DNA of 19,800 nucleotides from a virus (Duplodnaviria; Heunggongvirae; Uroviricota; Caudoviricetes), in the IMG/VR virus record IMGVR_UViG_2609459834_000013, positions 1-19,800 of that record, one strand, 5' to 3'. The notes under the pieces were generated by a model. The model had not been told where the DNA came from, did not search any database, and saw only the letters and a list, made by a program, of their open reading frames with translations. A program made the position numbers and the translations under genes. The number at the start of each line of letters is the position of its first letter. The first letter of the stretch is position 1. Shown here in pieces: positions 1 to 946 of the stretch.

Positions 1-123
1 GGCTTCGTGAAAGCCAGATACAAGGGGCTGCTGAAAAACGATAACCAACTGGCGATGTTATTCACCCTGGCCAACCTGTTTCGGGTGGACCAAATGATAC
101 GTCAGTGGGAGAGATCTCAGTAA
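1..123 (+). CDS. 3' end (40 codons) of an unidentified ORF entering from upstream of the window; ends ...[24 protein letters not shown]
   Basis: Open frame 1 from the window edge to TAA at 121-123 with ordinary enteric codon usage; no family recognised. Convergent with the terminase remnant. Confidence 0.3.
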
Positions 124-223
124 AAACCGGAAATAACGCCAGAAATGGTGGAAAAAATAGCCTAAATAGGCTGATTCGATGTGTTTGCGGGAAAAAAATC
201 GGCCCAGATCCGCGAAATTTTAA

Positions 224-946
224 TCAGCGAGTCAACTTGGGAAGAAATGACCTGCTTATTCGCACCTTCCCAAGATACACATGCCGATAAAGCTCGTGAT
301 TAGCCTTCTTCATAATCTCCATATCCCTGCGGAGAGTTTCCGGGAACCATGGATTAGCTGTGTAGTTGATCTGCTTGACGATGCAGTAGCGATTACCGTT
401 TTCGTCATAGTCGGGGTATATGCGATTCGTAACAAAGCGCTGATGTGTATCGCTGAGTCTGTTCTTCGGGTTGTATGCAACCCATATTTCCGACTCAACC
501 ACTCGACCATACTCAGCGCTGTAGAACTCTTTACGTACCGTTGGGATAAGCGTTTCCCATGAGTCCTTTGATACGTTTTCTGCTTCCTCTACAAGGGCGG
601 CATCGAAGTTTGCGTAACCTTTGATATTTTCCACGTTAAGGCGCAGGAAGTCGAAACTGATACGTCCGCCGCTATTGGCAAATATCTCTGTCTTATTGAT
701 AGTCACCAGTGAGTGGAGGTTTCGGCGGTTAATCTCTTCAACAATTTCCGCATAGCATGATTCCTTGATGGACTTCATGTACTCACGAAAACAGATAAGC
801 TTCCATCCGTGATAGATGACGTTATTGAGGAGGATTGTTATGAACGTTCGCGTCTTGGCGGAACCTCGCCCGCCATAAGCTACCTTGAATCTGGCTGGCT
901 GCAGGTATTCCTCAAACGCTTCAGGAATGCTGCATTGCTCTGTCAT
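224..946 (-). pseudogene. phage terminase large subunit, apparently 3'-truncated (ATPase domain only, 240 aa)
   Basis: ORF track 224..946; N-terminal Walker A-like motif GGRGSAKT typical of terminase large subunit ATPases; start overlaps terS stop (ATGA). Stop at 224 and no continuing minus-strand frame; terminase large subunits are normally over 400 aa with a C-terminal nuclease domain. Confidence 0.6.

Follow-up and report, generated by a model that had tools for sequence, protein, structure and literature searches.

An ISKpn26 copy has, in our reading (probability about 0.93), transposed into the terminase large subunit gene (terL) of a P22/Sf6-like lambdoid prophage of Escherichia coli, and the contig that carries the prophage ends inside the insertion sequence (IS). 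The place concerned is the left edge of the window, by which we mean the whole stretch of 19,800 nucleotides that was analysed. The initial annotation had described here a terminase reading frame that breaks off beside a convergent, unrelated open reading frame (ORF), and had taken the arrangement for the scar of a deletion or of decay. The junction is instead the exact terminus of ISKpn26, with 100% identity over 270 bp, which speaks against such a scar. In the course of events that we propose, the element (1196 bp) would have inserted in codon 226 of the 492 codons of terL, the transposase and terL genes facing each other in convergent orientation. Ribosomes that start at terL would then read on for 14 codons in the IS inverted repeat and stop there, yielding a chimeric ORF of 240 aa. 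The draft assembly, presumably unable to resolve a multicopy IS, would have let the contig, and the window with it, end 271 bp inside the element.

The features on which this reading is based are the following.

1-270, plus strand: 3' terminal 270 bp of ISKpn26 (IS5 family), element positions 927-1196 of 1196, with the left side cut by the contig end
1-123, plus strand: last 40 codons of the ISKpn26 DDE transposase (residues 287-326 of 326) with the TAA stop at 121-123
149-172, minus strand: short hairpin (159-172) and T-run, from a terminator scan, within the non-coding 3' end of ISKpn26
255-270, plus strand: right terminal inverted repeat CTTATTCGCACCTTCC (reverse complement of GGAAGGTGCGAATAAG), read in the sequence; IS identity stops at 270
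224-270, minus strand: IS-derived read-through tail KVRISRSFLPKLTR, comprising the last two bases of codon 226, residues 227-240 and the TGA stop (226-224)
271-274, no strand: CAAG, the first four phage bases past the IS end, a candidate copy of a target-site duplication whose second copy would be off the contig
271-946, minus strand: 5' part of terL (PBSX / Sf6 gp2 type), codons 1-225 and the first base of codon 226, ATPase domain only
943-1386, minus strand: small terminase subunit gene (terS), intact, 147 aa, its stop overlapping the terL start (ATGA), from the ORF list

The left edge of the window is the end of ISKpn26

Window bases 1-270 agree at 270 of 270 positions (100%) with plasmid copies annotated 'IS5-like element ISKpn26 family transposase', and a plasmid search with these bases returned at least 5000 matching records. 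ISKpn26 usually travels on resistance plasmids. The full reference copy (L004, 575-1770) measures 1196 bp; its left boundary, at 575, reads GGAAGGTGCGAACAAG and its right boundary, at 1770, reads CTTATTCGCACCTTCC. For the published element, a member of the IS5 family, a size of 1,196 bp and a 4-bp duplication are given (PMC8023600). The share of the element that is visible on the contig is the last 23%. The 16-bp terminal inverted repeats of ISKpn26 read GGAAGGTGCGAA(C/T)AAG, and the right one lies at 255-270, the left one off the contig. The canonical IS5 of K-12 is 91% identical to ISKpn26 overall, and about 71-87% identical in the terminal region.

The plus-strand ORF that is convergent to the terminase ORF does end at 123, as had been stated, but it is not unrelated to a known gene: in a BLASTP comparison with the transposase of the reference copy, 40 of 40 residues were identical, and the ORF corresponds to residues 287-326 of the ISKpn26 transposase. 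The 326-aa transposase has DUF772 and DDE_Tnp_1 domains, of which the window covers the final 40 residues of the protein only. The hairpin and T-run that had been noted between the two ORFs are likewise present at 159-172, with a 5-bp stem and the T-run after the stem on the minus strand. They do not, however, speak for a terminator between genes, as they are located inside the IS, and as the number of terminator-like sites in the window (2 found) is close to that expected from shuffled sequence (1.7).

All 270 visible bases are the same as in ISKpn26 from enterobacterial plasmids and from the Klebsiella pneumoniae genes acrR and mgrB. With this known element the window also shares the transposase C-terminus, the terminal inverted repeat and the inactivating insertion into a coding gene (PMC8023600). 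It differs from ISKpn26 elsewhere in the target, here the terL gene of an E. coli prophage, and in the flank, which is CAAG and not the usually reported CTAG/YTAR.

Position 1 is an assembly boundary

Window base 1 is base 2 of the draft E. coli contig JNPE01000070.1 (37,303 bp, GCA_000703505.1), and contig bases 1-271 are ISKpn26 positions 926-1196, so that the sequence stops within the repeat. Short-read contigs usually end inside multicopy repeats. That multicopy IS elements complicate assembly is noted in PMC4558774. Because the window starts at a contig end within an IS, the lack of head and tail genes before position 1 reflects an assembly boundary, and the conclusion that structural genes are missing cannot be drawn from the window.

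Over 20,972 bp, a Logan re-assembly of the reads (SRR1186799) agrees fully with the NCBI contig; it sets in some 3.3 kb to the right of terL. This assembly (L008) breaks near window position 3284, in the lysis (Rz) region, where the NCBI contig runs on. The break at Rz suggests that the same genome contains another lambdoid prophage whose lysis cassette is nearly identical.

The terL reading frame runs into the insertion sequence

According to the ORF list, the terminase-type ORF on the minus strand (224-946) has an ATG start and stops at 224 after 240 aa, which confirms the initial annotation. The Pfam profile Terminase_3 matches residues 19-227 over profile positions 3-201 of 201 (E = 1.9e-37). 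By contrast, the NCBIfam profile for PBSX-family large terminases, TIGR01547, is matched at positions 2-205 of 396 only, with 99.2 bits, below the curated cut-off of 105.05 bits, whereas the intact relative P0036 matches positions 2-396 with 208.5 bits. Because profile coverage stops halfway in comparison with the full-length relative, terL is cut after the ATPase domain, as had been proposed initially from the look of the ORF.

Alignment with the TerL of E. coli NT1F10, which is intact at 492 aa, places the break to the base. Residues 1-226 are the same and residues 227-240 all differ. Codon 226 spans the junction: its first base comes from the phage and its second and third bases come from the IS, the glycine being kept by chance. 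The tail that follows, together with the TGA stop, is the opposite-strand reading of the IS inverted repeat. The N-terminal part of the protein contains the P-loop-like stretch GGRGSAKT, which we take, by our own reading of the sequence, to be the Walker A motif of TerL.

In a PDB search, the full-length relative matched the Sf6 gp2 entry 4IDH over TerL residues 5-479 (E = 3e-192), and the 278-residue gp2 chains 5C10 and 5C12 aligned with TerL residues 220-479, which are missing from the window copy. We take these two chains to be constructs of the Sf6 gp2 nuclease domain. On that reading, the break would fall in the linker that joins the ATPase domain to the nuclease domain, and the entire nuclease domain would be out of the reading frame. 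Compared with Sf6 gp2 and the TerL proteins of P22-like prophages (TIGR01547), the window copy has residues 1-226 identical to those of intact relatives and thus the ATPase domain kept, but it is without residues 227-492 and has a 14-residue IS-encoded tail in their place. As far as can be judged from the sequence, the window terL is a gene fragment and not a functional member of the TIGR01547 / Sf6 gp2-type family. The domain content, with the nuclease domain missing, supports the earlier suggestion that the terminase is probably non-functional. The product of the adjoining terS gene is annotated as terminase small subunit in CUS-3-type phages.

Homology switches at the terminal inverted repeat

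In a megablast search of window 1-1000 against complete E. coli genomes, the query split in two. Positions 267-1000 matched prophage genes annotated 'PBSX family phage terminase large subunit' at 99.9%, and positions 1-293 matched 'IS5 family transposase' regions. No record among the complete E. coli genomes contained both halves of the query, and no place in them covered 80% or more of it. In a three-way alignment, IS identity ends at window position 270 and terL identity begins at 271. As the prophage terL matches set in at about 267 and the IS matches extend to 270, the homology switches exactly at the terminal inverted repeat; at the join, terL and the IS have just one or two C residues in common. 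The CAAG flank at 271-274, the one flank that is visible on the contig, fits CWAR, not YTAR. 'CWAR' is quoted as an IS5 hotspot (PMC2891674), and a strong preference for the stricter YTAR target has been measured for IS5 (PMC5009759).

The exact 45-bp IS-terL junction found no match in species-representative genomes, a collection that evidently does not include GCA_000703505.1. In the gene-position collection, contig JNPE01000070.1 is the sole occurrence both of the 61-aa ORF that spans the junction and of the 240-aa product (WP_032177426.1, Escherichia coli). Since the junction-spanning ORF is unique to one contig, the insertion appears to be strain-specific.

Intact relatives are common in prophages

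The identical TerS protein is found in hundreds of assemblies. In 10 of the 10 other places listed, it precedes a TerL of 491-492 aa, and in all ten terL is followed by P22-type portal, scaffold, coat, gp4, gp10, gp26, gp14 and gp7 genes. Eight of these ten prophage loci, all intact, have zero DNA mismatches to window 271-1386. The insertion is thus recent, and no other decay is seen in the retained DNA. The mosaic prophage as a whole, end to end, was found in no complete E. coli genome, the best coverage being 64%. No near DNA match (about 85% or higher) to the N-terminal half of terL (271-946) was found in 50,697 deposited phage genomes, in which terS alone matches (CUS-3-type phages). Prophages of E. 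coli and Salmonella, by contrast, commonly have it, so that the terL allele is known mostly from prophages.

Alternative explanations

Several other explanations for the short terminase ORF were considered. The reading that a plain deletion or decay scar connects the truncated terminase, across a terminator, with an unrelated gene of host or phage is refuted. Nothing speaks for it but the look of a truncated ORF beside a convergent one. The 270 bp next to terL match an IS terminus exactly, 16-bp inverted repeat included, terL homology stops at the last IS base, the supposedly unrelated ORF is the C-terminus of a transposase, and the hairpin is IS sequence that shows no enrichment over shuffles. 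An assembly chimera, in which IS reads were wrongly attached to a terL gene that is uninterrupted in the strain itself, would be in keeping with a contig end in a repeat, where short-read assemblers are least reliable, and with the independent Logan re-assembly, which stops short of the terL-IS region. We nevertheless consider it very unlikely, since the join matches the terminal inverted repeat of the IS to the base, as real transposition would, and since a misjoin at a repeat is not expected exactly there, with one or two C residues in common.

A terminase that is naturally complete at about 240 aa, consisting of the ATPase domain only, can be dismissed; no point speaks in its favor. The initial annotation had proposed a comparison with homologues that are full length at about this size; the homologues have 491-492 aa, and among the listed cluster members the exceptions are the window ORF and one 56-aa fragment. 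The TIGR01547 score below the cut-off, the coverage of half of the profile and the last 14 residues, which are encoded by the IS repeat, also argue against a short terminase. It is extremely unlikely that the lone ATPase domain with its 14-residue tail serves as a dominant-negative defence, or that two halves make up a split terminase. In the former case, the lone ATPase domain, expressed from the late operon, would poison the packaging motor of superinfecting P22/Sf6-like phages and might be retained for that effect, and its targets would be phages with the same small terminase and portal. No sign of selection on the truncated terL allele was seen, and the allele is present in a single assembly.

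Simple insertion or insertion with deletion

For the insertion of ISKpn26 itself, two outcomes have to be distinguished. We consider it probable that the insertion was simple, and that the rest of terL and the head and tail module lie beyond the IS, on another contig. A simple insertion would have generated a 4-bp duplication of CAAG. The alternative is an IS-associated deletion or rearrangement, in which ISKpn26 would have removed, on insertion or afterwards, the distal half of terL and some or all of the head and tail module, leaving a cryptic prophage without structural genes; it would lead by another path to what the initial annotation had concluded. This is consistent with the fact that the right IS-phage junction is the only one visible, and with CAAG not being a preferred YTAR target. 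There is also precedent, as ISKpn26 insertions in Klebsiella prophages have been reported with losses of 10.3 kb and 32.3 kb (PMC6908951), and as one of 30 acrR insertions lost neighbouring sequence together with a duplicated repeat (PMC8023600). We nonetheless regard a deletion as unlikely. The 100% identity of the retained DNA to that of intact prophages points to a very recent event without other decay, and simple insertion is the usual outcome, both in acrR, where 29 of 30 ISKpn26 insertions were simple and had a CTAG duplication (PMC8023600), and in the CTAG/CTAG case described below.

To look for the other side of the insertion, the expected left (IRL) junction was rebuilt from an intact locus (L001) and ISKpn26, and the C-terminal ORF was predicted with TTG, GTG and ATG starts. 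A homology search with the predicted C-terminal TerL fragment returned unrelated partial proteins only. An exact look-up of 24 fragment sequences (9 C-terminal variants with up to 4 start codons each) gave one match, which is not from this strain, so that none of the 24 was traced to GCA_000703505.1. This would be expected after a deletion, but the failed look-ups weigh little, since they need the exact residues and start codon and since pseudogenes have no protein record. The single match (L019, 2558-4055) lies on an ENA metagenome contig, NODE_3944, with 5x coverage and without an IS. There, terL is called as two overlapping ORFs (256 and 259 aa), in a region that exceeds intact terL by 19 bases. 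The split is probably due to an indel or an assembly error and unrelated to the IS event.

A related P22-like prophage in E. coli TBE6 (CP154401) contains a 1195-bp IS5-family element (L009, 1057-2251) that is flanked by CTAG on both sides and lies between the O replication gene and the nin region. The terS and terL genes of that prophage are identical to those discussed here. The 5' part of the element resembles ISKpn26, and its 3' end diverges from it. In the TBE6 genome, at least 40 places match the window 1-1000 query. The element in TBE6 represents a parallel simple insertion.

The remainder of the prophage

Apart from the left edge, the window contains an ordinary lambdoid early, nin, Q and lysis region, with the following genes.

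Lysis, Q and nin region: holin, endolysin and Rz; Q, NinB to NinH and a Dam-like methylase
Replication and control: DnaB- and O-type replication proteins; cII, cro, a cI-type repressor and N
Further genes: cIII, Kil, Erf and SSB
7578-8105, minus strand: Dam-like orphan DNA methyltransferase (PF05869, PADLOC oMTase models) in the nin region, between NinB and NinE
12975-13286, plus strand: 103-aa ORF directly downstream of the cI-type repressor, in a rex-like position (phrog_2651, unknown function)
13907-14410, minus strand: ORF of 164-167 aa, oriented against the pL operon and flanked by the N-like antiterminator and cIII/kil (phrog_1244, unknown function)

The 103-aa ORF had no match to defence models, and the ORF at 13907-14410 had no Pfam, NCBIfam or PADLOC match. 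In the place of the latter, lambdoid phages often have exclusion or moron genes. Assignment of the truncated TerL to a defence system was rejected, as it had no PADLOC match.

Beyond the window (contig 19.8-28.7 kb; L007, 12003-20972), an intact tyrosine integrase (392 aa) adjoins sbcB, the gene for exonuclease I. Past sbcB there are further host genes, namely yeeD/yeeE-like genes, an amino-acid permease, a LysR regulator, yoeB/yefM, hisL and hisG. As host genes follow the integrase and sbcB, the element is a chromosomally integrated prophage at an sbcB-adjacent site.

Consequences for the prophage

The prophage has very likely lost the ability to package DNA. From what the domains of large terminases are established to do, a TerL without a nuclease domain would neither cut nor package concatemeric DNA. 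This loss should be expected after a simple insertion and after an IS-associated deletion alike. Without DNA cleavage and packaging, the prophage would not make infectious particles, while its regulation, replication and lysis genes look intact.

Inactivation of a resident prophage by an IS is already known, and the finding is nothing new in kind. The Klebsiella prophages hit by ISKpn26, ISKpn28, IS1 or IS26 (PMC6908951) and the prophage of TBE6 have likewise been inactivated by IS elements. In contrast to decaying prophages of Enterobacteriaceae, the visible genes are, apart from the IS, indistinguishable from those of intact relatives, so that the event is at an early stage and the prophage not an eroded remnant. 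The inactivation of a prophage by an IS of host or plasmid origin is a classic first step of prophage domestication.

The main value of the analysis lies in a correction: a truncated terminase next to a supposedly unrelated gene, with structural genes seemingly missing, turns out to be a routine IS insertion where a draft contig ends. Before a truncation at the edge of a window or contig is put down to decay, it should be compared with IS termini. For the strain itself, we predict a prophage that is probably still inducible and still able to replicate and to lyse the cell, but that would not package its DNA.
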